64,000 nucleotides of DNA from Ruminococcus sp. (GTDB lineage Bacteria; Bacillota; Clostridia; Oscillospirales; Ruminococcaceae), in assembly GCA_023667165.1 (NCBI GenBank), contig JAMPAO010000005.1:19-64018 (forward strand), in the 5' to 3' direction. Numbering within the stretch: position 1 is the first letter of the stretch; each line of letters starts with the position of its first letter. Below the pieces are notes generated by a model. The model had not been told where the DNA came from. It was given only the letters and a program-made list of their open reading frames with translations, and did no database searches. Both the position numbers and the translations under genes were made by a program. This document shows, piece by piece, positions 14,459 to 40,808 of the stretch.

Positions 14459-14550
14459 GCGCAAAAGGATGAATTTCAGCGTATGTGTATTCACATACTT
14501 GCAAAGCCTATAAACATATAAAACAGTCAGATCATGGGAGCGTATCATAT

Positions 14551-15471: not shown

Positions 15472-15537
15472 GTTGATCGGAAGCGCTGAATACGCTCTGC
15501 GATTTAACTGTCGAATTATGGCTTACGGAGGTAAAAT

Positions 15538-16557: not shown

Positions 16558-16644
16558 AATAAGCGGAAACGGCATTTCGGAAAGTCAAATATGATTTAAA
16601 TGGCTTTGGAATATTTCGTCTTTATCATCGGAGGTTGATTTTTT

Positions 16645-18037: not shown

Positions 18038-18046
18038 GGAGATAAT

Positions 18047-18802: not shown

Positions 18803-18813
18803 AAGGATAAACA

Positions 18814-20886
18814 ATGAAAGAGAGAATTGCTGTTTTTGCGTACAGCGGCAGTTCCGAAGAAGCTGACGAATATGCCTTGTTTCTCTTGAAAGCTGCGAGA
18901 GAGAGCTTTTCATATATCATAACCTCTGTAAGCAAGGATTGCCCTGACAGCGCTTCGGCAGAAATAGGAGAAATATCGGATAAGGTGCTGGTTTCCGAAA
19001 ATAAAGCGCCGTTTTCCGCGTATTCCGAGGGAATAAGATATATAAAAGAAAACGGTCTTGATAAAAAATATGCTGAAGCTGTTCTGTTGGATGATTTTTT
19101 TTCCAAGCCGATTTGCAGCTTTGAAGAGCTGTTCGGAAAAATAGACGGATTTTCGGATAGTCCGGATTTTTGGAGCATATCCGGAGCGGCGGAAGCTTCG
19201 CCGAACGGCGTGGAGCATTTGCAGCCGCATTTTATCGCGGTATCGAAAAAAATGCTGGCATCATCCGAATTTGCCGATTTTTTGGATAATGCGAAGGGTG
19301 ATTTTTTCGGTCATTTTTCCGGCATCGGCTTTAAGCCGGCGGTCATTGAAGCGGATAACTTAGCGGATATCAGAAAAAATAACAGATCTGCGGCGCAGGC
19401 TGCCGCCGTAATCGGGAAATCAAGGCTTTTTAACCGCGGGCAGTATATAAGCAAGTATCCCGAGGCGTTAAGATACGGTCTTCCTCCCGAATATCACTAT
19501 CTCAACATAGGTTGGCGCAAGGGATTCGATCCTTCGGATGAATTTTCTTCAACAGAATATTTGCGGCTCAACAGCGACGTAAAGCAAAGCGGTATATGTC
19601 CTTTGCTGCATTTTGAGCGTTACGGCAAAAGAGAACGCAGACCCTATAAAACCGAAAACGGAAGCATGGTACGGGCAAATCGTCCGCTGTTTGACCTGAA
19701 ATTTATCGGCGGCAAAGCCAAAAACCTTCTGCGGCAGGTAAAATATTATTTTACTTTGAAAGTAGATCCCAACAAGATCCTTTTCCATGCTTTTCAGAAC
19801 GACTACACCTGCAATCCCAAATATATCTGCGAGGAGCTTCTCAGACAGGATCTGCCCTTCGAGATAGTGTGGATAGCCGATAAAAGCGGAAAGAAGGACG
19901 CCAATTTTCCAAGTCGTGTAAGACTTGTAAAATCGGGAACTCCGCAGGCTATGGCTGAGATCATGACGTCAAAAATAATCATTGACAACGGAGTGCTGCC
20001 GTTCAGAAATAAATTGTTTAAGAAAAAGGAACAAATATCCATAAACACATGGCACGGTTCGCTGGGTTTTAAGCGGCTTGACGGAAATCAACTGAAAAAA
20101 ACACGGATGACTTCAATGTTATATAACCAAATCAACGATTATATCATTTCCGACAGCGACTTCGAGGATAATGTTTTCAGAACCTCCAATTGGCAGAAAA
20201 CCGAATTTATCAAATGCGGACATCCGAGAAACGATATACTGATATCCTGCGGCAGGGAGAAAGCCGAGCTTATCAAAGCAAAGGTTTACAGTGCCTGCGG
20301 TATTCCCGAAAATCAAAGGGCGGTACTGTACGCGCCTACTTTCAGGGAAAAAATCGTCGATACCGAGCCGTCGGGACAAAAATCGGAAGAACTTGACCTC
20401 GATATTTTATGCGGCGCTCTGGAGGAGAAATTCGGCGGAGAATGGTGCGTTCTTATGCGCGCCCACTTCGTCAACGCCAAATCGGAAAGCTCCGTTTTTG
20501 CCGAGCGTCACCGGATCTGCAACGCCACGGATTATCCCGACATACAGGAGCTTATGATCGCGGCGGACGCGGGAGTTACCGACTATTCAAGCTGGATACT
20601 CGATTATATGTATACCCGCAAGCCTGCCTTTCTCTACACTCCCGATTACGAGGACTACGATATGCAGAGAGGCTTCTATTACCCTCTTTCCGAGTCCCCT
20701 TTCCCCGCGGCAAAGAACAATAAGGAGCTTTCGCGGGTGATAAAGGAATTTGACGGCGGCGAATACAGCAGGAAGATCGATGAATTCCTTAAAAGCAAGG
20801 GCAGCCGCGAGGACGGCTGCGGAAGCAAGGCGGCAGCAGAGGCGATAAAGAAGCTTATGAATTACAAGGAGGACAAGAGCCAATGA
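18814..20886 (+). CDS. CDP-alditol/glycerol phosphotransferase (TagF/TagB family) with an N-terminal accessory domain
   Basis: 690 aa. C-terminal TagF-family motifs NTWHGSLGFKR, LYAPTFRE, TDYSSWILDY. The N-terminal ~200 aa contain HLQPHFIAVSKK (tentatively RgpF-like). HYxxxG/HFERYGKRERR repeats at nt 19428-19641. Confidence 0.75.
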   Translation: MKERIAVFAYSGSSEEADEYALFLLKAARESFSYIITSVSKDCPDSASAEIGEISDKVLVSENKAPFSAYSEGIRYIKENGLDKKYAEAVLLDDFFSKPICSFEELFGKIDGFSDSPDFWSISGAAEASPNGVEHLQPHFIAVSKKMLASSEFADFLDNAKGDFFGHFSGIGFKPAVIEADNLADIRKNNRSAAQAAAVIGKSRLFNRGQYISKYPEALRYGLPPEYHYLNIGWRKGFDPSDEFSSTEYLRLNSDVKQSGICPLLHFERYGKRERRPYKTENGSMVRANRPLFDLKFIGGKAKNLLRQVKYYFTLKVDPNKILFHAFQNDYTCNPKYICEELLRQDLPFEIVWIADKSGKKDANFPSRVRLVKSGTPQAMAEIMTSKIIIDNGVLPFRNKLFKKKEQISINTWHGSLGFKRLDGNQLKKTRMTSMLYNQINDYIISDSDFEDNVFRTSNWQKTEFIKCGHPRNDILISCGREKAELIKAKVYSACGIPENQRAVLYAPTFREKIVDTEPSGQKSEELDLDILCGALEEKFGGEWCVLMRAHFVNAKSESSVFAERHRICNATDYPDIQELMIAADAGVTDYSSWILDYMYTRKPAFLYTPDYEDYDMQRGFYYPLSESPFPAAKNNKELSRVIKEFDGGEYSRKIDEFLKSKGSREDGCGSKAAAEAIKKLMNYKEDKSQ

Positions 20887-21602
20887 ACGCGGCAGTTATT
20901 TTCGCGGGAGGAGTAGGACAGCGTATGCGGTTGGCTGCCGTTCCGAAGCAGTTTCTGGAGCTTCACGGAAAGCCGATAATCATATATACCTTGGAGCAGT
21001 TCGACAATCACCCCGATATAGACGGGATAGTTATCGCTTGTCTTGAATCCCATATAGCATACCTTGAAAAGCTGATCAAGAAATTCGGTATAGAAAAGGT
21101 AAAAGCGGTAGTTCCCGGAGGCGCTACGGGGCAGGAGTCCATATTCAACGGCATTGAAAAGGCTTCCCGGCTGTTTCCGGAGGATACGGTGCTGCTCATT
21201 CACGACGCTGTGCGTCCTCTTATCACTGCGGAGCTTATAACGGAAAATATCGGATCGGTGAAAAGCTGCGGCAGCGGAGTTACCGTTTCTCCCGCCATTG
21301 AAACCATCACGGTAAAGGGAGAATTCGAGGGCGAGGTGGGCGAGATAATCACCCGCGACCGCTGTCAGCTTGCCAAAGCGCCGCAGAGCTTTATTCTGAA
21401 AGATATCCTGGACGCCCATCTCAAGGCGAGAGCGGAGGGCAAAAACGATTTTATAGACTCCGCCTGTCTTATGAGGCATTACGGATATAAGCTGCACACA
21501 GTGGAGGGCAGCACTGACAATATAAAAATAACCACGCCCACGGATTTTTACACATTCAGGGCAATTGTTGAGGCGCGGGAAAATTCTCAGATATTCGGTT
21601 AA
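20883..21602 (+). CDS. IspD/TarI-family cytidylyltransferase (likely ribitol-5-phosphate cytidylyltransferase)
   Basis: AAVIFAGGVGQRMRLAAVPKQFLELHGKPII; 239 aa. ATGA overlap with the TagF-like gene. Confidence 0.75.
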   Translation: MNAAVIFAGGVGQRMRLAAVPKQFLELHGKPIIIYTLEQFDNHPDIDGIVIACLESHIAYLEKLIKKFGIEKVKAVVPGGATGQESIFNGIEKASRLFPEDTVLLIHDAVRPLITAELITENIGSVKSCGSGVTVSPAIETITVKGEFEGEVGEIITRDRCQLAKAPQSFILKDILDAHLKARAEGKNDFIDSACLMRHYGYKLHTVEGSTDNIKITTPTDFYTFRAIVEARENSQIFG

Positions 21603-21615
21603 GGAGCGTATATAA

Positions 21616-22662
21616 ATGAATTCTGTTCTCAGAGAGGATATTTTGTCGGTCATAGGCGATACCGGAATACCTTGGGATATGCTTGAGGGGAAAACGGTTT
21701 TTATTACGGGAGCTGCGGGACTTATAGGAAGCGTACTGGCAAAATCTCTGTTAAGCCTTGAAAACCGCAGTGTGAAGGTTGTCGCCATGGCAAGAAGCAG
21801 GGAAAAGGCGGAAAGAGTATTTGCCGATTTTTCGGGGAACGACAGGCTTGAGATCTGCGAGGGAGATATCAACAGCGGGATATCCTATCCGGGCGGCGTT
21901 CATTATATTATTCACGGGGCAAGCGTAACGTCAAGCAAAATGATGGCGGAACGCCCTGTTGACGTTATAATGACCGCTGTGGGAGGCACGGCAAACGTTT
22001 TGGAATTTGCGCGCAAAAAAAACGCCGAAAGGACGATATTCTTATCCTCAATGGAGATATACGGCATTCCCGGGACCGATGAAAAAATATACGAGGACAG
22101 CTACAAATACCTTGATCATATGAACGTAAGAAGCAGCTATCCCGAAAGCAAAAGACTTGCGGAAACACTGTGCGTTTCCTATGCAAAGCAGTACGGTCTT
22201 GCGGTAGGTATCGTTCGTCTTACCCAGACCTTCGGCGCGGGAGCGGAGTTCGGCGACGGCAGAGCCTTTGCGGATTTTGCCCGCAATGCGGTAACGGGTA
22301 AGAATATCATTCTCCGCACCAAGGGAGAAACAAAAAGAAATTACCTCTATACAGCCGACGCCGCGAGAGCCGTGCTTTATGTTATGCTCAAGGGCGCCTG
22401 CGGAGAGGCGTACAACGCGGCAAACGAAAATACCTACTGCACCGTTTATCGGATGGCGCAGACTGCCGCCGAGCTGGGGAAAGGCTGCTGTGTGGAGATA
22501 CAGGAAAGCGAGATATCCGAATTCGGCTACGCTCCGCCGCTTAAAATGAACCTTTCAGCGGAGAAGCTGCGGAGTCTGGGCTGGGAAGCAAAGTATGACC
22601 TTAAAGAAATGTTTGAAAGAATGATGAGATATTGGAAAGAGGAGGGAGCGTATGAAGCCTAA
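21616..22662 (+). CDS. extended SDR (NAD-dependent epimerase/dehydratase/reductase family)
   Basis: VFITGAAGLIGSVLA (GxxGxxG), YPESKRLAE (YxxxK); 348 aa. Confidence 0.75.
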   Translation: MNSVLREDILSVIGDTGIPWDMLEGKTVFITGAAGLIGSVLAKSLLSLENRSVKVVAMARSREKAERVFADFSGNDRLEICEGDINSGISYPGGVHYIIHGASVTSSKMMAERPVDVIMTAVGGTANVLEFARKKNAERTIFLSSMEIYGIPGTDEKIYEDSYKYLDHMNVRSSYPESKRLAETLCVSYAKQYGLAVGIVRLTQTFGAGAEFGDGRAFADFARNAVTGKNIILRTKGETKRNYLYTADAARAVLYVMLKGACGEAYNAANENTYCTVYRMAQTAAELGKGCCVEIQESEISEFGYAPPLKMNLSAEKLRSLGWEAKYDLKEMFERMMRYWKEEGAYEA

Positions 22663-24421
22663 GGTTTCCGTATTAATGGCTGTATTTAACGGCGGCGAGG
22701 GGCTGCGGGACTCGATAGGCTCTCTCTGCCATCAGACCCTGAGGGAGATAGAAATAGTATGCGTCGACGACTGTTCCACGGACAATTCCGCGCAGATAAT
22801 ACGTGAGCTGGCGGAAAACGATCCCAGAATAAAGCTCGTTTCCTCGGAGGAAAATATGGGAACGGTATATTCCAGAAAAGCGGGCGTGAAAAACGCTTCG
22901 GGAGAGTATCTGATGTTCATGGATCAGGACGATGAATACGAGCTTTTCGCAGCCGAGGAGCTTTACGCCATGGCAAAGGAAAAGAACGCGGATATAGTTC
23001 ATTTCCGTTCCCGCGTAATAGCCGTTCCTCCCACTACGGAAAATCAGCGGAAATGGCAGGAGGATTTCATGGCGCCCTATGACGGCTTTCTTTACGGCAA
23101 TGACGTTTTCGACGGCTGTTTCGGGAAAAATCCCCATGAGGAAAAGACCTGGTACAAGTACACATGGAATTTGTGGAATAAGATCTACAGGACGGACGTC
23201 TGCAAAAAAGCCATGGAGAAATGCACCGACGAATACATTATAAACGGCGACGATATGTATGTTTATATGCTCATATCCGACTGCGCCGAGTCCTATTACG
23301 GGGACGCAAAGGGAAAATTTTACCATATATACAGCTTAGGATCGGGACTTATGGGCAATCACAAGCTCACGCTGCGGCGGTTTTACACCATTGTCAGGCG
23401 GGTAACGGGACTGGAAAGCGAAAAAAAGCTTTTTTCCGAAATGGGCGAACGCTACCGCGAGGCTTACGAGATAGACCTGCGAAGAGGACTTCAGGGCATA
23501 GTGGAACGGTGGTATCTCCGTCTGGAGCCGATGAGCTACGGAAACGGATATGACATGATGCTGTCATATGCGGATCCTGCGGATATTATTGCGGCGTTTG
23601 AAAAGCATCTTCGGGTGGGGAATGTAAAGCTGTTTAATGCGGCAAAAAATTCCGTCAGTATGCAGATCACCCATAAATATACCAAGCAGGCGGCTGTTTA
23701 CGCGGATAAAAATACCGATTTGAACGCGCTGGAAAACGCGGTAAAGGTATGGCGGTCAAAAGGGTATAAAATTATTTATATAACCGAGCATGACGGGGAG
23801 GCGGAGCTGCCCTTTAAGGAGATCACGCCGCTGCACAGGCTTGCTCCCGAAAAAAAGGACGCTTTGTATTATGAATATCCGTACAGGGAGCGGCTGAGAA
23901 GTCTGAAAAATATACTGGAGATGAACAATATCGACTGTCTGGTGTATTTTACGAATATACGGCACAATTATATTTACGATCTGCTGCTGACGAAGTCCCT
24001 GGGGAGAAAGTTCACCGTATATGCAGCCGATTATCCGAAATTCAAAAAGGAACGCGCTCCGGCAAAATTCCGCGAATATACGGATACCCTTGAATGCAGC
24101 GACGGAGTTATGCTGCCGGCAGGCTGTGAAAACGTTTCTGCCAATGCATTCAAATACAGCCGTGAATTAGACTTTGGCGATATTTTCGTTTTGGAGCCTC
24201 CGTCAAACGCCATAGCGGCGGAGCTGGAAAGCATCATTGAGGACGACGAGTTCAAGGCAATGTGCGAAAAACTGGCTTTTAGGAGAATGTACAAAAAAAG
24301 CGGAGCTAAAGACAGGCTCAAGCTCATCGCAAAAAAAATACTCCGTGTTTTCGGAGTTCACAAGGATTATTACTGCTCCGACCACAACAGCTATTTAATG
24401 CTGAAGAAATTGGAGGGATAA
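22652..24421 (+). CDS. GT2 glycosyltransferase with a ~330-aa C-terminal extension
   Basis: VSVLMAVFNGGEGLRDSIGSLCHQTLREIEIVCVDDCSTDNS, FMDQDDE; 589 aa. Confidence 0.75.
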   Translation: MKPKVSVLMAVFNGGEGLRDSIGSLCHQTLREIEIVCVDDCSTDNSAQIIRELAENDPRIKLVSSEENMGTVYSRKAGVKNASGEYLMFMDQDDEYELFAAEELYAMAKEKNADIVHFRSRVIAVPPTTENQRKWQEDFMAPYDGFLYGNDVFDGCFGKNPHEEKTWYKYTWNLWNKIYRTDVCKKAMEKCTDEYIINGDDMYVYMLISDCAESYYGDAKGKFYHIYSLGSGLMGNHKLTLRRFYTIVRRVTGLESEKKLFSEMGERYREAYEIDLRRGLQGIVERWYLRLEPMSYGNGYDMMLSYADPADIIAAFEKHLRVGNVKLFNAAKNSVSMQITHKYTKQAAVYADKNTDLNALENAVKVWRSKGYKIIYITEHDGEAELPFKEITPLHRLAPEKKDALYYEYPYRERLRSLKNILEMNNIDCLVYFTNIRHNYIYDLLLTKSLGRKFTVYAADYPKFKKERAPAKFREYTDTLECSDGVMLPAGCENVSANAFKYSRELDFGDIFVLEPPSNAIAAELESIIEDDEFKAMCEKLAFRRMYKKSGAKDRLKLIAKKILRVFGVHKDYYCSDHNSYLMLKKLEG

Positions 24422-24501
24422 AAGGCAATCTGCAAAGTCGGTTGTGAGGGAGAGGGGAATACATGCAGTGCGGAAGCATTATTTAAAAATGTGAAATCTA
24501 T

Positions 24502-24530
24502 TTGACATTTTGTGATGTTAATGATATAAT
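24502..24530 (+). promoter_or_regulatory. consensus sigma-A promoter candidate inside the cluster
   Basis: TTGACA (24502-24507), 17-nt spacer, TATAAT (24525-24530), 35 nt upstream of the 24565 start. Confidence 0.6.
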
Positions 24531-24564
24531 AATGATTAGGCTCACAGTAAAAAAAGGAGAAAAA

Positions 24565-26583
24565 ATGCTTAATAAAATAAAAAAAATATTAACAAACCCT
24601 GTTTACATTGTCATAGTTATATTTATGCTTGTTATAGTGTTCAAGTCGGTTACTATAGTTAAAGCTGTTAATGCTGTATACAGTGAGGATGTCAATTTGG
24701 ACAATATAACTGTTAGAGGGTATACCTATGAGAATTATACTTTAACTCCTATAAATGATGCTCCGCAGATAAATATTCCATGTTCAAAAGAAACAGTAAA
24801 TTTAATTACAATTAATTTTGCAGAACCTGTTTATACGGGTGGTGACGCAAAAATATATTACTCGGTGGATGAAGACCAAGGATTAAGTGAAGCTAAATCT
24901 ATTTATGTTCCGGTGCCTGTAGATGCTACGCAAATTTTTGTTGAATTGCCGTACGAAGCTGTCTATACACGAGTAAGATTTGATATGTCCAGTGTTTTTG
25001 TATTGGGTTCTATAGAATGGCATAGGGGGGGATTGAATAATATAATACAAATAAATTATGGGTTAATAATAGTGAGCATAATTTTAGCTATAATAATTTT
25101 GATGGTATATTTCACATTTAGAAAGCAAATTGACGGTGTTATATTAAGGATTATTTCGAAATATCGTAATGAATCCGTCTTTGTCCTTGAATCTTCTTAT
25201 AAGGTTACGCTTTCCAAATTATATTTGATTTTGTCGATATCTTTTGGAATTATGATTATTTTTTTATGCCCCCCAAATTCAATGCCTGATGAGCAGGTAC
25301 ATTTTAATGTTGCTGTAAGCATATCAAGAGGAAACTTTTTTGGTAAACATGATGAAAACGGTCGTTTGGGATATTTAAATTTTTACGATGAGGTAGAATT
25401 GCTGCCAGTGTATAGAAAGAGTGTTTATCCGGAAACTTTCACTTATAGCGACGCTCAATATTATTATAATAAAAAACAACCGTTAAATCCCACTTTTAAT
25501 CCTATCGGATTATCTAATCCTGTTGGGTATTTGGTTTCCGGATTGGGTATGTCAATTGCTCAAACATTATTAAGGAAAGTTCCGTCTGCATATACGTTAA
25601 TGATTATAGGAAGATGTAGTAATCTTTTGTTCGCAGCCGTAGTAATGTCCTATTCCATTAGAAAATCAAGGGTTCTAAACAATACTATGTTTTTATTGGG
25701 GTTAATGCCAATGACATTATATCAATGTTCATCTATTTCTTATGACGCTATAACTTTTTCAGCGGTATATTTATTATTTGCAGTTAGTAATAATATATTT
25801 TTTTCTAAGGAAAATTATATTATTACTGTCAAAGATATCTGCTTAGTATGCATAGCAAGTTTTATGCTTTTTGGTTCTAAAGGAGGAGTATTCGCAACTT
25901 TTACATTAGTTCTTTTGGCTATAGAAATAAAAAAATTTGGAAATAAAAAGAGATATTTTTTTTGTATAGGTCTTATTGTTTTTACAGCAATAATAGCTTA
26001 TATTGTTCCAAGGTTAATAATACATTCTCTTACTATAGAATCGGGTTATATCGATGACATAAGAATAAGCCAACAACAGGAATATTTAATGTCAAATTTA
26101 AATCAAATTCCCATAATTATTTTTGAAACATTTAAAAAATATGGATCAAAATATTGGGAGGAATATATTGGATGTTTAGGTTACTTTGATGTTCATATAC
26201 CGTATCCGTATCTTGTGGCATATACAATTGCTTTAATAATATCATGCCTTATTGAAGTGTGTATGGTAAAAAATATGAAATTAAATTTTAGAATGTTGTC
26301 ATTAATTGCAAGTATTATTTCTTTTATGGGGATAGTATTCAGTATGTATTTATCTTATGCTGCTATAAAAGACAGAGTGGGGGGTGTTTTGGCAATTGGA
26401 ATACAGGGACGTTATTTTATTCCGCTTACACTTTTTGTTATTATTTTTTTTGCGAATCCATTGCTTTGCAAATTCAAATATACACCCAATATCATGCAGT
26501 TCGATGAATGTCTTGTTAAAATAGGCGGAATAACATCTTGTTTAATAACTGTTTTTTCGTTGTTTGTTGTATATTGGCTCTGA
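24565..26583 (+). CDS. large polytopic membrane protein, DUF2142-like (putative GT-C type glycosyltransferase)
   Basis: About 672 aa from ATG 24565 (AGGAGA RBS). More than 10 hydrophobic segments. PPNSMPDEQVHFNVA motif after the first loop, as I recall for DUF2142. Very AT-rich gene. Confidence 0.6.
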   Translation: MLNKIKKILTNPVYIVIVIFMLVIVFKSVTIVKAVNAVYSEDVNLDNITVRGYTYENYTLTPINDAPQINIPCSKETVNLITINFAEPVYTGGDAKIYYSVDEDQGLSEAKSIYVPVPVDATQIFVELPYEAVYTRVRFDMSSVFVLGSIEWHRGGLNNIIQINYGLIIVSIILAIIILMVYFTFRKQIDGVILRIISKYRNESVFVLESSYKVTLSKLYLILSISFGIMIIFLCPPNSMPDEQVHFNVAVSISRGNFFGKHDENGRLGYLNFYDEVELLPVYRKSVYPETFTYSDAQYYYNKKQPLNPTFNPIGLSNPVGYLVSGLGMSIAQTLLRKVPSAYTLMIIGRCSNLLFAAVVMSYSIRKSRVLNNTMFLLGLMPMTLYQCSSISYDAITFSAVYLLFAVSNNIFFSKENYIITVKDICLVCIASFMLFGSKGGVFATFTLVLLAIEIKKFGNKKRYFFCIGLIVFTAIIAYIVPRLIIHSLTIESGYIDDIRISQQQEYLMSNLNQIPIIIFETFKKYGSKYWEEYIGCLGYFDVHIPYPYLVAYTIALIISCLIEVCMVKNMKLNFRMLSLIASIISFMGIVFSMYLSYAAIKDRVGGVLAIGIQGRYFIPLTLFVIIFFANPLLCKFKYTPNIMQFDECLVKIGGITSCLITVFSLFVVYWL

Positions 26584-32597: not shown

Positions 32598-33464
32598 ATG
32601 GCTTCTGATACAAAGCTTTCTTTCAAGCTATGGAATATGTGCAGAGATATCTGCGTCAAGCTGGGGTTATGGCAATTCGGGCACAATGTATATACTCTCT
32701 GGGTGCAGTTTACTATGATTAAATTTAACCGTGATATGAACAGACGAAGAAACGGATGGAATGATCCTCGTTATGTGAAATTGAGGCAGTTTGAGAATAT
32801 TCACAAGGGAAAGCGGTGCTTTATTGTTTGCACAGGTCCAAGTCTTACCGTGGAAGATGTTAATAAATTAAAAGAAAACAATGAGATTTGCTTGAGTATG
32901 AATTCTATTGTAAATCTGCTTGATAAAACAGACTGGCGTCCCTCATATTATGTGGTATTGGATCCATGGGTATTTGAGCTTTTTTTAAATAATCCTATTA
33001 TGAATGACCTTAAAGTCAAATTTTTTGGCGATAAAATGTCTAATGTTGCAAATTTATGTGAGAATGACATGATGCTGCCTACCAATTTATTGGAGTTTTT
33101 AAAAATAGGATATCCAAGATCATTTTCCGACAATATATACAATGTAGTGTACGGAGGCGCGTCGGTAACTTATGCATGTATGCAGATTGCTGCATACATG
33201 GGGTTTAGTGAAGTATATCTGCTTGGATGTGATTGTAATTACAGCGGTTCCAAAAAACATTTTGATGATAAAGGATACGAGTATGCAAATGAGAAGATGG
33301 ATGCAGAAGGAAGCGTTGAAGATAATATGATTAAGACTTATCAATCAGCCCAAGCCTACTGCGAAACACACGAGGATTTCCAAATTTATAACGCCACCCG
33401 GGGCGGTATGCTGGAGGTCTTTCCACGCGTCGACTTTGACTCCCTTTTTGATAATAAATCATGA
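32598..33464 (+). CDS. DUF115/MptE-like protein (Maf- and CstII-like); putative ulosonic-acid (sialyl-type) transferase
   Basis: 288 aa. FIVCTGPSL (compare GNGPSL of CstII) and GGASVTYACMQIAAYMGFSEVYLLGCDCNY (compare SGVYMCAVAIALGYKEIYLSGIDFY). Confidence 0.6.
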   Translation: MASDTKLSFKLWNMCRDICVKLGLWQFGHNVYTLWVQFTMIKFNRDMNRRRNGWNDPRYVKLRQFENIHKGKRCFIVCTGPSLTVEDVNKLKENNEICLSMNSIVNLLDKTDWRPSYYVVLDPWVFELFLNNPIMNDLKVKFFGDKMSNVANLCENDMMLPTNLLEFLKIGYPRSFSDNIYNVVYGGASVTYACMQIAAYMGFSEVYLLGCDCNYSGSKKHFDDKGYEYANEKMDAEGSVEDNMIKTYQSAQAYCETHEDFQIYNATRGGMLEVFPRVDFDSLFDNKS

Positions 33465-34906
33465 AGAAGGGGTTGCTTGAAAAATACCGAGGATTGCCCT
33501 TATCCGTAAAGGCAGGATTTTGGTTTACGGTGTGCAGCGCTGTTCAAAACGGAGCAAGTTTTCTTTCTATGCCATTTCTGGTGAGATTGCTTACGACCGA
33601 AGAATACGGTATATACAGTGTTTTCCGCTCTTGGATAAATATTATTTCAATTTTTGCCACGCTTAAGATGTGTACGGAAGTATTCAATAACGCCATGTAT
33701 AAGTATCCTGACCGAAGAGATGAATATACCTCGGCGGCTCAAAGCATAAGCATTACCGGAGTTACAATATGCTTTATCGTGTATTTGGCGTTGAAAGACG
33801 TATGGAACGTCGTTTTCGGACTTCCCGGAAAATATTCTCTTCTGATCTTTATCCAGTTGTTTTTTACGGAAAGCTATGCCGTATGGACGGCTAAGCAGCG
33901 GTATGAATACAGGTACATGAATATGGTGATCTCTACGGTCGCTTTTTCGCTGTTGTATTTTGCAATGCCCATTCTGGCGGGGTATATGTCCGATGAAAAT
34001 ACCCGTCTGTCTGCTGTTATTTATGCAGGCGTTGCAGTTCAGGTCTGCTTCGGGTTCGGTTTTACGGTATTTAACTTTTTTAAAGGGAAATGCTTTTTTA
34101 ACCGTGAGTATTGGAAATTTGCCATAGGCTTTAACCTGCCCTTGATACCTCACTTTCTTTCATCGGTAATTTTGGGAGAATCGGACAGAGTTATGATAAA
34201 AAATATAGTAGGGCCTTCCGAAGCCGGAATATACAGCTTTGTTTATACAATAGCTATTGCTATAAACATTGTTACCGAAGCAATCAGAAATGCGATAGTT
34301 CCTATTGTTTACGACGCCTTGGGAAAGAAAGATTTTAAGGCAGTCAAATCGGCGGTAAATATTCTTCTGATTGCCGTGGGCGGGTTTATATTGATGTTTT
34401 CCGCAGTCGCCCCCGAGTTTATAAAGCTGTTTGCGACAAATGAGTATTACGGCGCAATAAAACTCGTGCCGGTAATATCTTTAAGTTCCTTTTTCGGTTT
34501 TTTGTACACGGTATTTTCAAATGTTGAGTTTTTCTTTGAAAAAAACAAGCTGGTGGCAATTGCTTCCGTTGCGGGGGCGGCAGCCAATATTTTCCTGAAT
34601 GCACTCTTGATACCGATATTCGGCTACTATGCGGCGGGGTATACTACCTTTTTGTGCTATGGGTTATACGCCCTTATCCACTATGCTTTTATGAGGAGAG
34701 TATGCAGAGAGAAGCTGGACGGTATGGAGGTTTATGATGAAAAAACCGTTTTGGTTATTTCGGTGCTGGTCATATTGGCGGCATTCTTTATGCTAATGAT
34801 ATACGATTATTGGCTCATTCGCTACGGGGTGCTGTTGGCGTGTCTGTCAGTGATAGCTGTAAAGCGAAAGAAAATAGCGTATCTTTTGGCAAGTTTAAAA
34901 AAATAA
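33461..34906 (+). CDS. wzx: Wzx-type oligosaccharide flippase (MOP superfamily)
   Basis: 481 aa, about 12-14 hydrophobic segments, typical polysaccharide-biosynthesis-protein layout. ATGA overlap with the upstream gene. Confidence 0.75.
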   Translation: MKKGLLEKYRGLPLSVKAGFWFTVCSAVQNGASFLSMPFLVRLLTTEEYGIYSVFRSWINIISIFATLKMCTEVFNNAMYKYPDRRDEYTSAAQSISITGVTICFIVYLALKDVWNVVFGLPGKYSLLIFIQLFFTESYAVWTAKQRYEYRYMNMVISTVAFSLLYFAMPILAGYMSDENTRLSAVIYAGVAVQVCFGFGFTVFNFFKGKCFFNREYWKFAIGFNLPLIPHFLSSVILGESDRVMIKNIVGPSEAGIYSFVYTIAIAINIVTEAIRNAIVPIVYDALGKKDFKAVKSAVNILLIAVGGFILMFSAVAPEFIKLFATNEYYGAIKLVPVISLSSFFGFLYTVFSNVEFFFEKNKLVAIASVAGAAANIFLNALLIPIFGYYAAGYTTFLCYGLYALIHYAFMRRVCREKLDGMEVYDEKTVLVISVLVILAAFFMLMIYDYWLIRYGVLLACLSVIAVKRKKIAYLLASLKK

Positions 34907-34932
34907 ATGTTTTTGATTTAGGAGATGATTTT

Positions 34933-35634
34933 ATGAAAACAGTTGCGGTCATACCGATCAAAATGAACAATCAGCGTACGCCGGGCAAAAACACCAGACC
35001 ATTAAGCGACGGTACGCCCTTGATCCATTTGATCCAAAAAACGCTGCTTGAATGCACTCAGATAGATGAGGTGTATGTTTATTGCAGCACGGAAGAGATA
35101 AAAAATTATCTTCTTCCGGGTGTGAAATATTTAAAAAGAAGTTCGCAGCTTGACACAGCGGAAACATCCATGAATACCATTTTGAAATGTTTTTCGGAGG
35201 ATGTCGATTCCGATATTTATGTTTTATCTCATGCAACGGCTCCGTTCTTATCGGCAGCAAGCATTGAAAAAGCGGTCAACGCGGTAAAAAGCGGCAAATA
35301 CGATTCTGCCTTTTCCGTGGAGAAGATGTATGATTTTTTTTGGAAAGGCAATGCGCCCTTAAATTATTCACTTGATAATATTCCCAGAACTCAGGACATG
35401 GAACCTTTTATCAAGGAAACCTCGGGTGTGTATGTGTTTACCGGAAATATTATCCGTGAACATAACCGTCGAATAGGAGATTCTCCCTGTATGGTTGAGG
35501 TATCTGAGATAGAGGCTATAGACATAGACACCCCCGATGATTTTATGATCGCAGACGCCGTTTACAGCTATATGCATATCTTACAAAAGGCAAATTGCAC
35601 AACGGGGGGGGGCATTACAAACAATATTTGTTGA
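34933..35634 (+). CDS. acylneuraminate (CMP-ulosonate) cytidylyltransferase family protein
   Basis: MKTVAVIPIKMNNQRTPGKN, RTQD, IDIDTPDDFMIAD; 233 aa. GGAG RBS upstream of ATG 34933. The track start at 34810 was rejected. Confidence 0.75.
   Translation: MKTVAVIPIKMNNQRTPGKNTRPLSDGTPLIHLIQKTLLECTQIDEVYVYCSTEEIKNYLLPGVKYLKRSSQLDTAETSMNTILKCFSEDVDSDIYVLSHATAPFLSAASIEKAVNAVKSGKYDSAFSVEKMYDFFWKGNAPLNYSLDNIPRTQDMEPFIKETSGVYVFTGNIIREHNRRIGDSPCMVEVSEIEAIDIDTPDDFMIADAVYSYMHILQKANCTTGGGITNNIC
35604..35612 (+). repeat. poly-G tract (G9) in the last 10 codons of the cytidylyltransferase gene
   Basis: Direct count gives G at 35604-35612, encoding TGGG. Confidence 0.95.
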
Positions 35635-35686: not shown

Positions 35687-36418
35687 ATGAAAATTATAGG
35701 CGTTATCCCTGCCCGATACAAGTCATCCCGTTTTCCGGGGAAGCCATTGTCTGATATATGCGGTAAGCCTATGATCTGGTGGGTCTATCAGCAATGCAGG
35801 AAGGTTGAGGAATTCGATGAAATTTATGTGGCGACCGACGATGAGCGGATAAAGTCCGTTTGTGACAAAGAGGGTCTTGGCGTTATCATGACGTCGGAGA
35901 AACACCTTACCGGTACGGACAGAGTTGCCGAGGTATCTCAAAAAACCGACGGCGATCTGTATGTTGTTGTCATGGGCGATGAACCGCTTATTTCTCCCGA
36001 TAATATAAGGGCAATGATAAGCGGGATGTTCGGCGGATATGACGCGGGCATGCTTTGTACAAAATTTAAAAACGGAGTTGATTTGATAAACAACTCCACG
36101 ATTAAGCTGGCAGTCAACGACAGGAATGAGCTTATCTATATGTCAAGGCTTCCGATCCCTTTTCCCAAGGCTGTTTTAGGCTACAGTCACTACAAAAATG
36201 TGGGGGTTTATGCGTTTACCAATAAGGCTCTTGATTTTTTCAGAAGCACTCCCAGGGGTCGGTTGGAAGCAATAGAGGATATGGAAATGCTTCGTCTGCT
36301 TGAAAATCATAAGCTGGTCAAGGTAGTCGAGGTGGAAACCGAATCTATGTCGGTGGACACGCAGAAAGATCTGGAACGGATCAGGGAAAAAGCCGCCGAA
36401 ACAGGATTTCCGTTATAA
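35687..36418 (+). CDS. KdsB-like 3-deoxy-ulosonate cytidylyltransferase
   Basis: MKIIGVIPARYKSSRFPGKPL, TDRVAE, MGDEPL; 243 aa. AAGGAGG RBS. Confidence 0.75.
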   Translation: MKIIGVIPARYKSSRFPGKPLSDICGKPMIWWVYQQCRKVEEFDEIYVATDDERIKSVCDKEGLGVIMTSEKHLTGTDRVAEVSQKTDGDLYVVVMGDEPLISPDNIRAMISGMFGGYDAGMLCTKFKNGVDLINNSTIKLAVNDRNELIYMSRLPIPFPKAVLGYSHYKNVGVYAFTNKALDFFRSTPRGRLEAIEDMEMLRLLENHKLVKVVEVETESMSVDTQKDLERIREKAAETGFPL

Positions 36419-36533: not shown

Positions 36534-37460
36534 ATGAATTATTTAGTAACGGGTGCAGCGGGATTTATCGGAGCTGCATTGGCTCAAAGACTGGTAAACG
36601 AGGGTCACAGTGTGGTGACTATCGACAATTTGTCGACGGGCATAATGGAAAATATTCCCAGGGGAGTTGAGTTTATAAAGGGAGATACCTTTTCTCCGGA
36701 GGTGATCGCCAAGCTGGAAAACCGCAAATTTGACGCGATCTATCACATTGCCGGACAAAGCGGAGGAGTTACCTGCTGGAGCGATCCCATTTATGACTTA
36801 AATTCAAATGTGGCTTCCAGCTTGCTGCTGCTTGACTATGCAAAAGAAAACGGAATCAAAAAATTCATATATGCAAGCTCCATGTCCGTGTACGGAGATG
36901 AAAACCCTTGCCCGGTAAGGGAAGACGCCGATATAAAGCCCAAGAGCTTTTATGCTGTGGGTAAAAATGCCAGCGAGCATTATATGAGGATATATTCGGA
37001 GCAATACGGTATAAAGTGCACGGCTTTGAGATTAAACAACACATACGGTCCCGGTCAGAATATGGAAAACCTTATGCAGGGAATGGTCAGCATTTTCCTT
37101 GCGCACGCCTTGAAGAACAAGCATATCACTGTTTTGGGCGATAAGAACAGATTCCGTGACTTTGTGTATATAGACGACACGGTGAATGCTTTTATACTTG
37201 CCGAAAACGGTCAGGAAAAAGACTTGTATAACGTGTATACGGTAGCTACTAACCGTAAAACCACCTGCGAACAGCTTATTGATTTGATGAAAAGGTATCT
37301 GCCCTTTGAAATAACCGTTGAATACAAGGGCAGTACACGGGGCGATCAATTCGGTATTTACTGCTCGTATGACAAAATACACGACGCGCTCGGTTTTACT
37401 CCTCAAGTGGCTTTAGAGGATGGGCTGAAGACAATGATCGAATGGGCGATGTCAAAATAG
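36534..37460 (+). CDS. NAD-dependent sugar-nucleotide epimerase/dehydratase (GalE/WbpP-like SDR)
   Basis: YLVTGAAGFIGAALAQRLV, SSMSVYG, YAVGKNASEHY; 308 aa. Confidence 0.8.
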   Translation: MNYLVTGAAGFIGAALAQRLVNEGHSVVTIDNLSTGIMENIPRGVEFIKGDTFSPEVIAKLENRKFDAIYHIAGQSGGVTCWSDPIYDLNSNVASSLLLLDYAKENGIKKFIYASSMSVYGDENPCPVREDADIKPKSFYAVGKNASEHYMRIYSEQYGIKCTALRLNNTYGPGQNMENLMQGMVSIFLAHALKNKHITVLGDKNRFRDFVYIDDTVNAFILAENGQEKDLYNVYTVATNRKTTCEQLIDLMKRYLPFEITVEYKGSTRGDQFGIYCSYDKIHDALGFTPQVALEDGLKTMIEWAMSK

Positions 37461-37523
37461 TATTCATTTTTCAGATATTTACGGCGGCATATGCAGATCA
37501 ATAATTTTGAAAGGAGCTGCAAA

Positions 37524-39107
37524 GTGAGTATACAAATTCTTGACTGTACTCTTCGTGACGGGGGATATGTGAACGATTGGGAATTCGGCGAGAATAATAT
37601 CAGGCGGATCATAAAAAATCTGTCGGAAGCGTCTATTGAAGCGATAGAATGCGGATTTTTAAGCCAAACAAAGAAATCCCGAAAAAATCAAAGCATATTT
37701 TCCGAGGTTTCAGAGGCGGAAGATTATTGCTTGGGAATAGATTCGGACAGTCTTGCTCTTATGGTAAACTGCGGTGAATATAAACCCGATGATCTCCCGC
37801 AGTATCAAGGAGGAAAAATCGGGATAATCCGGATAGCATTCCATAAGCATCAGCGGAATGAGGCGCAGGAGCTTTGCCTTGCGCTGAAAAATAACGGCTT
37901 TAGGGTTTTCTTTCAGCCTATGTATACATTGGGTTACAAGGACAGCGAGCTGCTGGAGCTGATAGAATGGGCAAACGCGAACTCTCCGGAGGCTTTTTAT
38001 ATAGTTGACAGCTTCGGGACAATGCGGAACAGGGATGTTTTAAGGTTTTTCTATCTCGTAAACAATAATCTGAATCCGGATATAAAAATCGGATTTCATT
38101 CCCATAACAATCTGCAGTTATCTTTCTCCAATGCACAGGAGCTTATTAAGGTCCATTTAAAACGTGATATAATCATCGATACCTCTGTCCTGGGCATGGG
38201 ACGGGGAGCAGGAAATCTTTGCACGGAGCTGATGACCCAGTACATCAACGAAAATATTGAAAAAAAATATGATCTGATACCGATTCTCGAAACCATGGAC
38301 GAGAATATCATGCCCATTTATTCCAATCACCCATGGGGTTACTCCGCGCCCTACTACATTGCAGCGGTCAATGACTGTCACCCCAATTACGCTTCCTACC
38401 TTATCGACCGCCAGACCCTTTGCATTAAAGATATAAACGTGATCATCAAGCAGATACCGGATGAGAAAAAGCACCTTTTTGACAGGGCGCTTATAAGCGG
38501 TTTGTATCTGAAGTTTCAGTCCCACAGCATTGACGACAGCGGGGCGATAGAGGATATAGCAAGGCTTTGCGGCGGCAAAAGGGTGCTTATTTTGGCTCCC
38601 GGAAAAAGTCTGCTCACTCACAGAAGCGCCATTGACAGGTTCATCTCCGAAAATGCGCCGGTGGTGTTCGCTATAAATCATATACCGAAGTTTTATGACT
38701 GCGACAGGATATTTATCAGCAATCTCAAGCGTTTCAAAAGCTTTGACGACGCTGTTTCACAGGTTAAGGACAAGCTCATATGCACATCGAATATTGCCGC
38801 TGAAAGCAGCATTTGCCGTGTAAATTATTCCAATTACCTCAATGATAACGAGGTGATCTACGATAATTCGGGGCTTATGCTGATAAATGTCTTGAAAAAA
38901 GCAGGGATAAACAGTCTGTTTCTTGCCGGATATGACGGATTTAAATATGCCGGAGCGAAGAACTATTTTGACGAGAACCTTGCCGATAATATCAACACGC
39001 AGCGGCAAAGCGCGATTAACGCCGCAATTGTTGAATATTTTACCGAAATGCGAAAGGTTATGAAGATAGATTTTATAACGCCGACGATATATGACAGCCA
39101 AGGATAA
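37524..39107 (+). CDS. fusion protein: N-terminal DRE-TIM (HMGL-like, pyruvate-utilising) aldolase domain + C-terminal DUF115/CstII-like transferase domain
   Basis: N-terminus IQILDCTLRDGGY, HSHNN, GRGAGN (DRE-TIM metallolyase motifs). C-terminus KRVLILAPGKSL and NSGLMLINVLKKAGINSLFLAGYDGF. AAGGAG RBS 7 nt upstream of GTG 37524; ATG 37491 is an alternative start. Confidence 0.65.
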   Translation: MSIQILDCTLRDGGYVNDWEFGENNIRRIIKNLSEASIEAIECGFLSQTKKSRKNQSIFSEVSEAEDYCLGIDSDSLALMVNCGEYKPDDLPQYQGGKIGIIRIAFHKHQRNEAQELCLALKNNGFRVFFQPMYTLGYKDSELLELIEWANANSPEAFYIVDSFGTMRNRDVLRFFYLVNNNLNPDIKIGFHSHNNLQLSFSNAQELIKVHLKRDIIIDTSVLGMGRGAGNLCTELMTQYINENIEKKYDLIPILETMDENIMPIYSNHPWGYSAPYYIAAVNDCHPNYASYLIDRQTLCIKDINVIIKQIPDEKKHLFDRALISGLYLKFQSHSIDDSGAIEDIARLCGGKRVLILAPGKSLLTHRSAIDRFISENAPVVFAINHIPKFYDCDRIFISNLKRFKSFDDAVSQVKDKLICTSNIAAESSICRVNYSNYLNDNEVIYDNSGLMLINVLKKAGINSLFLAGYDGFKYAGAKNYFDENLADNINTQRQSAINAAIVEYFTEMRKVMKIDFITPTIYDSQG

Positions 39108-39190: not shown

Positions 39191-40045
39191 ATGAATATGG
39201 AAAAGGTAATATGTTTCGGAGCAGGCGGTACAGCCGAGCATCTCTACGGCAAAATAACGGAAAAATACGATGTCATTGCTTTTGCGGATAATCAAGCTTC
39301 AAAGCATGGGCAAACTCTTATGGGAAAGGAGATAATCCCGCCGGACAGCATAAACGACTACCCCTATGACTATATTGTACTCACTACAATGTGCGGGGAT
39401 TCAATATTCGGTCAGCTTGCCGAAATACGGGGGGGGGGTATAGACAGGACGAAAATAATCTCGGATTTTGTTTCATACCCTGTTGAAAGCAGGATAGAAT
39501 GGCTGCGTTCTTTGTCGGACCTTCAGGAAAATATTGATAAAAACATCAATGTGGCTGAAGCGGGAGTATTCCAAGGTGATTTTGCAAAGCATATTAACAG
39601 CCTTTATCCCGAGAGGACGCTGCATTTATTCGATACCTTCGAGGGATTTTCTAAAAACGACGTAAATCGGGAAAACGGGTTATCCGACGCTTATTCCGGT
39701 AAATTTGCAAGTACAAGCGAGGATCTTGTTATGAAAAAAATGAGCCATCCGGAAAAAGTACATATCCATAAAGGTTTTTTTCCGCAGACTGCCGAGGGGA
39801 TAACCTCGCAGTTTTGCTTTGTCAATCTTGATATGGATCTGTATCAGCCGACGCTGGAGGGTCTGCGTTTATTCGCTCCCAAAATGGTCAGAAACGGAGT
39901 TATCTTAATTCACGACTATCTTTGGGGACCCTATGAAAAGAGCGTAAAAAAAGCCGTTCATGAGTTTATGGACGAAACGGAATTCAAAAATCTTCGTTTA
40001 ATGCCTATCGGAGACGGGGTAAGCATTGCTGTGGTAGGCTTTTGA
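39191..40045 (+). CDS. TylF/macrocin-O-methyltransferase-family SAM-dependent methyltransferase
   Basis: VAEAGVFQGDF, LFDTFEGF, NLDMDLYQPT, IHDY; 284 aa. Confidence 0.75.
   Translation: MNMEKVICFGAGGTAEHLYGKITEKYDVIAFADNQASKHGQTLMGKEIIPPDSINDYPYDYIVLTTMCGDSIFGQLAEIRGGGIDRTKIISDFVSYPVESRIEWLRSLSDLQENIDKNINVAEAGVFQGDFAKHINSLYPERTLHLFDTFEGFSKNDVNRENGLSDAYSGKFASTSEDLVMKKMSHPEKVHIHKGFFPQTAEGITSQFCFVNLDMDLYQPTLEGLRLFAPKMVRNGVILIHDYLWGPYEKSVKKAVHEFMDETEFKNLRLMPIGDGVSIAVVGF
39429..39438 (+). repeat. poly-G tract (G10) inside the methyltransferase CDS (codons ~80-83)
   Basis: Direct count gives G at 39429-39438, encoding RGGG. Confidence 0.95.
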
Positions 40046-40166
40046 TGAGCAAATACAAATAGCCAAACAGCCGATTTTTCATACAAATGAACGCGGCTGT
40101 TTCATGGCGGTATAGACTGCTGTGCTGCTGTTTTCTGTGTATCGCCATGACAAGAGGGGGAAAAGC

Positions 40167-40808
40167 ATGAATAAATATAAGCTTGTGATCTTCGATTTTG
40201 ACGGCACCGTCGCCGATACATCCGAGGGTATATTCAACAGCATACGTTACGCGCAGAAAATGATGCAGCTTCCGGAGATAAGTGCGGAGCAAATGCGTTC
40301 TCATGTGGGACCGCCCATGGAGGAATCCTATAACAGGAATTTCGGACTTCGGGGTGAGAAGCTGAAAAGAGCGGTGGCATACCACAAGGAATATGCGGTA
40401 AAGCAAGGCTTCAGAGAGCTGCGGATTTATGACGGGATCTTAGATCTGCTGGACAAGCTGCGCAGCGAAGGGTATCTTACCGCTGTAGCGACATTAAAAG
40501 CTCAAGGGACTATGGACAAAATAGCTGAGTGCTTCGGACTTAAGGAACGGTTCGACTGTATTGCGGGGGTAACGGAGCCTGTTACCAAGGGGGAGCTTAT
40601 ATTAAAATGCATGAAAGAGCTGGGGTGTACGGCTAAGGAAACCGTTCTGGTGGGTGACAGCGAGTATGACGCCTTGGGGGCAAGGGACGCAGAGGTTCGG
40701 TTCGTGGCGGTAACGTACGGATTTGGATTTAAAGAGGGAGAGGCTATCGAAGCAGTCGGTGTGTGCGGGAGGGCGGAGGAAATTTGGGAACGGATTCAAG
40801 AGGATTGA
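40167..40808 (+). CDS. HAD-superfamily phosphatase (phosphoglycolate-phosphatase-like)
   Basis: YKLVIFDFDGTVADT (DxDGT), VGDSEYD; 213 aa from ATG 40167 (GAGGGGGA RBS). Confidence 0.8.
   Translation: MNKYKLVIFDFDGTVADTSEGIFNSIRYAQKMMQLPEISAEQMRSHVGPPMEESYNRNFGLRGEKLKRAVAYHKEYAVKQGFRELRIYDGILDLLDKLRSEGYLTAVATLKAQGTMDKIAECFGLKERFDCIAGVTEPVTKGELILKCMKELGCTAKETVLVGDSEYDALGARDAEVRFVAVTYGFGFKEGEAIEAVGVCGRAEEIWERIQED

Follow-up and report, generated by a model that had tools for sequence, protein, structure and literature searches.

The gene at 37524–39107 in a 64,000-nucleotide stretch of a Ruminococcus sp. genome (GenBank assembly GCA_023667165.1, contig JAMPAO010000005.1, positions 19 to 64,018; hereafter the window) encodes a fusion of a DRE-TIM-type aldolase domain (N-domain) with a nucleotide-binding-type domain (C-domain). 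We propose that the fusion is the committed-step enzyme of a compact, widespread cassette that would make a cytidine monophosphate (CMP)-activated 3-deoxy-2-ulosonic acid, similar to 3-deoxy-D-manno-octulosonate (Kdo) or sialic acid, for surface glycans independently of NeuB or KdsA. The proposal is built from sequence comparisons and is, in our judgement, evenly poised between right and wrong. The gene and its two domains are as follows.

37524–39107, + strand: fusion gene, 527 amino acids from the GTG at 37524 (a longer open reading frame (ORF), from the ATG at 37491 to 39107, has 538 amino acids)
37524–38480, + strand: N-domain, residues 12–330, a DRE-TIM (HMGL-like) barrel and a helical DmpG-communication-like subdomain
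38481–39104, + strand: C-domain, residues 331–538, a seven-stranded alpha/beta domain of nucleotide-binding type, without a Pfam family

Residue numbers refer throughout to the 538-amino-acid ORF. Conservation was read from an alignment of 84 homologues and gene neighbours from 84 fusion-bearing loci, in which ORFs were called and clustered with flanks of up to 10 kb on each side. A cytidylyltransferase gene of the CTP_transf_3 family lies immediately upstream (position -1) on the same strand in 67 of the 84 loci and within seven genes in 75. The nearest such gene encodes a KdsB-like protein of about 245 amino acids in 38 loci and a distantly PseF-like protein of about 220 amino acids in 37, and partner cytidylyltransferases sampled from other phyla include both types (five of ten pass KdsB subfamily cutoffs and five are PseF-like). 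To our knowledge, all characterised CTP_transf_3 enzymes activate 2-keto-3-deoxy sugar acids, namely Kdo, N-acetylneuraminic acid (Neu5Ac), ketodeoxynonulosonic acid (Kdn), and the pseudaminic (Pse) and legionaminic (Leg) acids.

Further partners point in the same direction. An HAD_2 phosphatase gene directly follows the fusion (position +1) in 25 loci and is present in 30, and glycosyltransferase (GT) genes of sialyltransferase families (GT38 polysialyltransferase-like, GT52 and DUF115) occur no more than seven genes away in 55. Members of the GT38, GT52 and DUF115-type families use CMP-ulosonates. Genes of these families often occur together with TagGH-type ATP-binding cassette (ABC) transporter genes and one for an LCP ligase, and the combination suggests wall polymers. 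The cassette partners are also found within single proteins: two homologues (P0036 and P0110) join a CTP_transf_3 domain to the aldolase and the C-domain, and another (P0157) joins the aldolase and C-domain to an HAD domain at the C terminus. A NeuB- or KdsA-type synthase turned up neither among the frequent neighbour families that were annotated nor in the neighbourhoods with precomputed Pfam domains. Three loci (L065, L007 and L086) hold isolated three-gene operons amid unrelated genes, without another recognised sialyltransferase-type glycosyltransferase nearby. The suggestion in the original prediction that the fusion serves the synthesis and transfer of an acidic sugar thus gains strong support from a conserved cassette of KdsB/PseF-type cytidylyltransferases, HAD phosphatase and sialyltransferase-family glycosyltransferases.

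One of the isolated operons (L086:6450-12233), which runs from cytidylyltransferase through fusion to HAD, stands directly after MBOAT (DltB/AlgI-type) and DHHW/AlgX-type genes; its surroundings are housekeeping genes, with no glycosyltransferase nearby. Two families without a Pfam match (about 670 and about 460 amino acids) flank the cassette at L049, L062, L079, L017 and L035. In the larger one the N terminus bears a HAD-like DxDxT motif, and compact cassette operons repeatedly pair it with GT38 polysialyltransferase-like genes.

What the analysis shows is which domains are present, which residues are conserved, and how the genes are linked and the domains fused; the sense in which the aldol reaction runs, and which sugar it yields, are inferred. 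The N-domain would bind a divalent metal through D23, H203 and H205 and form a pyruvate enolate with R22; this enolate would be added to the aldehyde group of a free or phosphorylated aldose to give a 4-hydroxy-2-oxo acid, which would by definition be a 3-deoxy-2-ulosonate. Where the acceptor is phosphorylated, the HAD phosphatase would strip the phosphate. The KdsB- or PseF-type neighbour would then produce the CMP-sugar, to be installed by DUF115, GT38 or GT52-type transferases. More broadly, we suggest, with slightly less than even confidence, that gut Firmicutes, Bacteroidota, spirochaetes and others possess a widespread pyruvate-dependent route to CMP-ulosonates, one that needs neither NeuB nor KdsA, in which a DmpG-like class II aldolase acts as the synthase and is fused to a hitherto unclassified domain, related to DUF115/GT42, that deals with the nucleotide-linked sugar; what is made would perhaps be an undescribed sugar acid that polysialyltransferase-like enzymes polymerise into wall polymers.

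The fusion itself is not in doubt. Its ORF is uninterrupted, with no sign of a frameshift or chimeric join. A ribosome-binding site, GAAAGGAG at 37509–37516, stands 7 nt ahead of the GTG at 37524, and a 98%-identical homologue has a 527-amino-acid gene call from the equivalent codon; the gene therefore most probably spans 37524–39107. More than 7,900 relatives came up in a protein search. Among the best 120 of these, nearly all are 520–540 amino acids long, with about 97% query coverage and 50–98% identity; the exceptions are two truncated proteins (460–462 amino acids) and two with an additional cytidylyltransferase domain. Given so many homologues and so uniform a length among the best, the fusion is neither a chance event nor a sequencing artefact. 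At least 573 species encode a relative, according to a scan of one genome per species, and the best 80 loci come from Clostridia, Bacilli, Bacteroidota, Treponema, Alpha- and Epsilonproteobacteria, Gastranaerophilales, Acholeplasmataceae and one Thermoplasmata archaeon. The fusion is real, old and common, and no peculiarity of the window.

The rarity implied by the original prediction consequently falls away: the fusion belongs to a family with thousands of copies that is already catalogued as 'aldolase catalytic domain-containing protein', and a structure of the N-domain (3DXI) was deposited in 2008. The main new evidence, and the most informative, is the conserved cassette context. We found no paper on the function of the fusion family in the literature searched, although most subscription journals lay outside its coverage and absence is therefore unproven; two papers of apparent relevance, one in which Maf transfers Kdo and one about SugarBase, are silent on the family.

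The motifs quoted in the original prediction are all present in the protein (ILDCTLRDGG at 16–25, HSHNN at 203–207, GRGAGN at 237–242, LILAPGKSL at 366–374 and NSGLML...LAGYDGF at 459–484). The first three belong to the N-domain, for which Pfam assigns residues 13–267 to HMGL-like (PF00682; E 1.4e-19, 71 bits against a cutoff of 29), the sole Pfam family matched. In a PDB sequence search, the best solved match is 3dxi, over residues 13–326 with the RDGGY motif included (E 1.9e-34), and DmpG-type aldolases come next (4LRS, 8IH7, 1NVM and 4JN6; E 1e-13 to 1e-15). The AlphaFold model of the full-length protein (pLDDT 82.8) retrieves only aldolases with Foldseek (E 7e-16 to 1e-12), and DmpG, BphI-type enzymes and AmnG align over about 340 columns, a span that takes in the barrel and the helical subdomain that contacts the partner enzyme in DmpFG. 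The DRE-TIM assignment of this half in the original prediction is solid on all three counts, and the half does not fall into a non-aldolase TIM family. The 3DXI entry is BVU_2661 of Bacteroides (Phocaeicola) vulgatus, a member of the same family of which the N-domain alone was solved; because its title reads 'N-terminal domain of a putative aldolase', the two-part architecture had evidently been noticed in 2008. No associated paper or function for BVU_2661/3DXI was found in the literature searched.

The metal and enolate residues are retained. R22 and D23 of the RD motif and H203 and H205 of the HxH motif align with the enolate-stabilising arginine and the metal ligands of DmpG-type enzymes and are conserved in 99–100% of the homologues; the invariant residues of the N-domain are R22, D23, Y26, N28, H203, H205, N207, R238, Y284 and H297. 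The nearest curated families are 4-hydroxy-2-oxovalerate aldolases, with Claisen-type synthases farther off, and the protein misses the cutoffs for the former (TIGR03217/NF006049; 87.7 bits against 286 and 91.8 against 229). No DmpF-type acylating acetaldehyde dehydrogenase occurs among the annotated window neighbours or the annotated frequent neighbour families. We regard the N-domain as an active-looking, distinct subfamily of class II pyruvate aldolases, and not as a DmpG orthologue.

The C-domain was more difficult to place. Modelled alone with AF2, it forms a seven-stranded alpha/beta domain (pLDDT 84.8, pTM 0.84) with a low-confidence stretch at residues 486–500, disordered over 488–496, directly past the LAGYDGF motif, which we take to correspond in position to the lid of CstII (1RO7). 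Its invariant residues are G371, N396, N411, R414, S433, N434, D458, G480, D482, G483 and T530. A profile of the domain matched 1,294 clusters among 1.8 billion representative proteins; about half of the 150 clusters listed are full-length fusions and the others are shorter, with a recurrent group of about 300 amino acids and a further group of about 215–220 amino acids. Examined as candidates for a split form, the proteins of about 300 amino acids turned out to start at the internal methionine of GMGRGAGN, which marks them as truncated calls and not as separate C-domain proteins. The C-domain is essentially confined to the aldolase fusion.

Neither Pfam nor NCBIfam assigned a family to the C-half, whether it was scanned by itself or in 23 members; for DUF115 (PF01973) there was no Pfam match to the C-half alone and none at E<=10 in the 23 members. 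A PDB sequence search with the C-domain profile gave nothing better than E 0.08. Direct comparisons returned faint but concordant signals. By BLASTP, the C-domain shares 22% identity (E 0.002) with the stand-alone DUF115 protein of the window (32598–33464), in an alignment that brings together the very motifs named in the original prediction, the loop of GxGPS type and the LxGxD block. With hhalign, it aligns with a 34-member DUF115 alignment at E 0.065 (probability only 0.9 on a 0–100 scale) and with CstII at E 0.029 (probability only 1.7 on the same scale), the latter over SG..G..LxGxD..Y.FD with identical spacing; the CstII sequence was checked against 2WQQ and 1RO7. As a yardstick, DUF115 and CstII, whose structural relationship is accepted, align with each other over the same block at E 5e-4 and probability 30. 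The C-domain profile also matched CstII alone in hmmsearch (E 0.0034).

Structural comparison adds a third relative. Foldseek searches of the PDB with the C-domain gave no match with E<1e-3, and the highest-probability matches are SteA structures (9HMZ/9HMY, Corynebacterium and Mycobacterium; probability 0.97–0.99, E about 0.01, TM 0.43–0.48). The NCBIfam SteA model is matched weakly by 22 of the 23 members, at best with E 1.8e-6 and far under its cutoff, over strand 1, loop, helix and strand 2. The SteA domain binds GDP/UDP in a pocket like the ATP site of TPK and the CMP site of CstII (PMC12977500). SteA is an actinobacterial cell-division regulator without known catalysis, and its likeness to the C-domain is limited to the nucleotide-binding core. 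PF01973 takes in Maf flagellin nonulosonate transferases and the MptE pyrophosphokinase, and the DUF115 alignment has an invariant C-terminal NATRGG motif that the C-domain lacks.

Our reading is that the C-domain is probably a divergent relative of the DUF115/GT42/TPK nucleotide-binding fold that lies outside PF01973 and GT42. The DUF115/CstII likeness in the original prediction is therefore defensible at the level of the superfamily, on the BLASTP match and the likeness to SteA, but not as membership of PF01973 or GT42; the C-half is not assigned to an unrelated Rossmann family either, as SteA and DUF115 remain its best weak matches. To call the 32598 protein a paralogue, at 22% identity, was an overstatement.

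Two other candidates were set aside. A Lyx_isomer match to the C-half recurred in profile scans and was judged spurious. A SIS-type sugar-phosphate isomerase, a KdsD analogue, was considered from matches to NanR SIS domains at probability 0.8, and was dropped because the TM was only 0.33–0.38 and the SteA and DUF115 signals were better and agreed with each other.

Every activity considered for the C-domain is likewise inferred. As a divergent DUF115/GT42-like domain it would bind a nucleoside monophosphate, and we tentatively prefer the reading, expecting to be right about one time in three, that the CMP-linked product is its ligand and that it hands the sugar on to an acceptor. We prefer it because the motifs correspond to the donor sites of DUF115 and CstII and because stand-alone cassettes have no other recognised sialyltransferase-type glycosyltransferase nearby; a cassette on its own in a locus would be self-sufficient if its C-domain did the transfer.

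Several points weigh against the proposed pathway and against transfer by the C-domain. The position of the catalytic histidine of the RDGSH motif (His21 in DmpG, His20 in BphI) is occupied by Tyr26 of RDGGY, invariant in all 84 homologues. DmpG-type aldolases are familiar from catabolism, as cleaving enzymes, and at equilibrium the aldol reaction disfavours synthesis unless it is pulled forward. Nine of the 84 loci have no CTP_transf_3 gene nearby; three of these (L041, L047 and L074) have a 145-amino-acid TagD-like cytidylyltransferase (PF01467) one or two genes upstream, which may be an unrelated supply of cytidine diphosphate (CDP)-glycerol or may mean that a phosphorylated product is CDP-activated there. 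In six loci (L020, L021, L037, L056, L059 and L083), a PfkB kinase replaces the HAD phosphatase, which our scheme leaves unexplained. For the C-domain, CstII and Maf are outside the top 50 Foldseek matches, and no C-domain histidine is invariant among the homologues, so that the catalytic His188 of CstII has no conserved counterpart; H397 and S460 are kept in close relatives but not family-wide, with H397 replaced by phenylalanine in 58 of the 84. Finally, most loci have separate sialyltransferase-type glycosyltransferases, so a transferase role of the C-domain is not required.

The loci with a PfkB kinase form a subgroup in the fusion as well. The kinase gene directly follows the fusion or its cytidylyltransferase, and the protein is closest to 2-keto-3-deoxygluconate (KDG) and 2-keto-3-deoxygalactonate (KDGal) kinases (in NCBIfam, it matches the kinase half of a 2-keto-3-deoxy-6-phosphogluconate (KDPG)-aldolase/kinase fusion at E 6e-98). 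Residues 288, 349, 449 and 484, which lie in both domains, co-vary with the HAD or PfkB partner: fusions in PfkB-type loci carry N/H288 and Y484 in place of Y288 and F484, and the window protein is of the HAD-associated type (Y288, D349, F484). Covariation in both domains suggests that both are tuned to the same substrate, and the PfkB loci hint at a six-carbon KDG-like sugar or a different substrate subclass. A degenerate C-domain in this subgroup, with the kinase as its replacement, was ruled out; the C-domain invariants are intact there.

If the C-domain does not transfer the sugar, it could instead prepare the acceptor, as an MptE/TPK-type ATP-dependent (pyro)phosphokinase acting on the free aldose ahead of the aldolase, the HAD phosphatase and the cytidylyltransferase. 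This would follow the same logic as the animal series of ManNAc kinase, NANS, NANP and CMAS, with four activities mapping one to one onto four conserved domains and the fused pair catalysing consecutive steps. About a third of loci have an HAD phosphatase next to the fusion or joined to it, PF01973 contains a true pyrophosphokinase (by Pfam name), SteA as the best structural neighbour is nearer to the ATP site of TPK than to the CMP site of CstII, and the invariant D458 and D482 with R414 could bind Mg-ATP. Nevertheless, the C-domain has an asparagine after strand 2, as do CstII and DUF115, and not the DGGA-type motif of TPK; the separate PfkB kinase would be redundant in six loci; central metabolism supplies aldose phosphates without a dedicated kinase; and no HAD gene lies within the fetched flanks in 54 of the 84 loci. 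We consider a kinase unlikely, though worth keeping in view.

The missing counterpart of the CstII histidine and the dedicated transferases in 55 loci would both be expected if the C-domain were a catalytically dead GT42/DUF115-like sensor that binds the CMP-ulosonate and feedback-inhibits the aldolase. DRE-TIM enzymes typically end in an allosteric domain to which the end product of the pathway binds, and such a sensor would parallel the regulatory domains of isopropylmalate and citramalate synthases as well as the inhibition of GNE by CMP-Neu5Ac; near-obligate fusion to a committed-step enzyme also fits regulation. About 12 invariant polar residues, two aspartates among them, are nonetheless more than a binding site usually needs, and we hold a purely regulatory role to be quite doubtful.

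The helical subdomain between the barrel and the C-domain resembles the communication domain of DmpG, which in DmpFG carries an aldehyde tunnel, and would suit delivery of an aldehyde to the aldolase. The C-domain would then be a nucleotide-sugar hydrolase, with a transferase fold and water as acceptor, that frees the aldose from a nucleoside diphosphate (NDP)-sugar. In bacterial nonulosonic-acid pathways, a hydrolase with a glycosyltransferase fold acts just ahead of the synthase; NeuC, PseG and LegG do so before NeuB-type synthases, and GDP-mannose-pathway enzymes are encoded upstream in the window. This arrangement leaves the HAD phosphatase unexplained, however, and minimal cassettes contain no NDP-sugar-modifying genes, which makes it improbable. 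About as improbable is that the N-domain makes no sugar, but cleaves a 4-hydroxy-2-oxo acid or condenses acetyl-CoA with a 2-oxo acid (Claisen) to give a non-sugar acidic glycan substituent: its nearest characterised relatives are indeed catabolic aldolases and then Claisen synthases, but its scores of 88–92 bits compare with equivalog cutoffs of 229–286, a DmpF-like dehydrogenase is absent among annotated neighbours, the family has RDGGY and not the RDGEQ motif of Claisen-type DRE-TIM enzymes, and the context is always glycan biosynthesis with CMP-ulosonate-type cytidylyltransferases and sialyltransferase-type glycosyltransferases.

The window itself offers one full instance of the cassette, within a single large + strand surface-glycan region of about 7.9–45 kb. 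The genes around the fusion are as follows.

32598–33464, + strand: stand-alone DUF115/MptE-like protein (PF01973 E 1e-18; weak PseD and WaaZ matches), a candidate CMP-ulosonate transferase
33461–34906, + strand: Wzx-type flippase (Pfam Polysacc_synt E 5e-17), part of the same sub-cluster
34810–35634, + strand: PseF/NeuA-like CTP_transf_3 cytidylyltransferase, distantly PseF-like, with its likely true start near 34932
35687–36418, + strand: KdsB-like CMP-ulosonate cytidylyltransferase (CTP_transf_3; Pfam E 3e-43), a cassette partner
36534–37460, + strand: short-chain dehydrogenase/reductase (SDR), an NAD-dependent sugar epimerase/dehydratase (Pfam Epimerase E 8e-58), directly upstream of the fusion
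39191–40045, + strand: TylF-like O-methyltransferase (Pfam TylF E 6e-10), between the fusion and the HAD gene
40122–40808, + strand: HAD_2 phosphatase (Pfam HAD_2 E 5e-35), a cassette partner
40895, + strand: GT2 glycosyltransferase, near the fusion
42044, + strand: acyltransferase, near the fusion

The stand-alone DUF115 gene shares contigs with the fusion in other organisms and is present in 17 of the 84 loci. The 35687 enzyme passes KdsB cutoffs (NF009905, 267.5 against 255; NF003952, 246 against 193). Two unlike CTP_transf_3 genes thus adjoin in the window (34810–35634 and 35687–36418); the first, as listed, overlaps the flippase gene, and a 98%-identical contig has a 233-amino-acid call for it. 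The SDR at 36534 is GalE- and dTDP-glucose-dehydratase-like and falls under the cutoffs for both. The TylF-like gene (39191–40045) has a C2185-like N-terminal part, and its position suggests that the product is methylated; the 98%-identical contig (L088:11675-12522) has it as two calls of 81 and 217 amino acids, and the gene may be frameshifted there.

Farther upstream, a teichoic-acid-type set (17261–22662) begins with an ABC-2 permease and ATPase and continues with an RgpF and TagF-like glycerophosphotransferase (18814–20886), an IspD/TarI-like cytidylyltransferase (20883–21602) and an SDR (21616–22662). Together with rhamnose genes at 14485–17214, this set places the fusion in a much larger wall-polymer region. 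An ORF of 1,781 amino acids at 7878–13223 has an unusual architecture of radical-SAM, GT2 and GT4/GT1 domains. The GC content is 34% at 24001–26000, over a DUF2142 membrane-protein gene (24502–26583), against 40–53% in adjoining regions, and such wide variation across the glycan region suggests a mosaic origin. At the edge of the window (78–1490), an MmeI-type restriction-modification ORF has methyltransferase, target-recognition and C-terminal domains; it looks truncated at the N terminus, because its methyltransferase Pfam match starts at profile position 97 of 259.

What hosts and phages perceive of a bacterial surface is shaped by its sialic-acid-like and Kdo-like sugars. Because genome surveys predict such sugars from NeuB or KdsA, they would miss a large set of producers if our proposal is true; at least 573 carrier species, many of them gut commensals, would be affected. 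Many sialyltransferase-family genes whose loci show no annotated NeuB/KdsA-type synthase would then gain a function, an aldolase family known from catabolism alone would gain a synthetic role, and the unclassified C-domain would be set in a functional context for the first time. A pyruvate-using ulosonate synthase would, moreover, be a useful biocatalyst. The conserved cassette offers what we see as a concrete, testable prediction of wide reach, an ulosonic-acid cassette with a different synthase.

Among known enzymes, DmpG, BphI and HsaF share with the fusion N-domain the barrel and helical communication subdomain (Foldseek about 1e-12, TMt 0.67) and the Arg-Asp and His-x-His metal and enolate residues. 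DmpG and the N-domain are each paired with a nucleotide-binding alpha/beta partner. In the fusion, unlike in DmpG, that partner is covalently joined and has a fold other than that of DmpF, and the context is glycan biosynthesis rather than aromatic or steroid catabolism.

In its proposed role, the fusion is closer to NeuB, KdsA, LegI and PseI, which likewise join a three-carbon unit to an aldose to give a 3-deoxy-2-ulosonate ahead of CMP activation, in the similar company of a cytidylyltransferase, an HAD phosphatase and sialyltransferase-type glycosyltransferases. The analogy is functional and by context only: NeuB and KdsA belong to an unrelated family (a Pfam scan placed the fusion outside NeuB (PF03102) and DAHP_synth_1) and use phosphoenolpyruvate as donor, whereas the fusion would probably use a metal-bound pyruvate enolate. 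The Kdo pathway (KdsD, KdsA, KdsC and KdsB) and the animal sialic-acid pathway (GNE kinase, NANS, NANP and CMAS) each comprise four activities whose logic, of preparatory step, condensing enzyme, HAD phosphatase and CMP-transferase, the four conserved domains of the cassette would share. Compared with both, the cassette draws its condensing enzyme and its fourth domain from other families.

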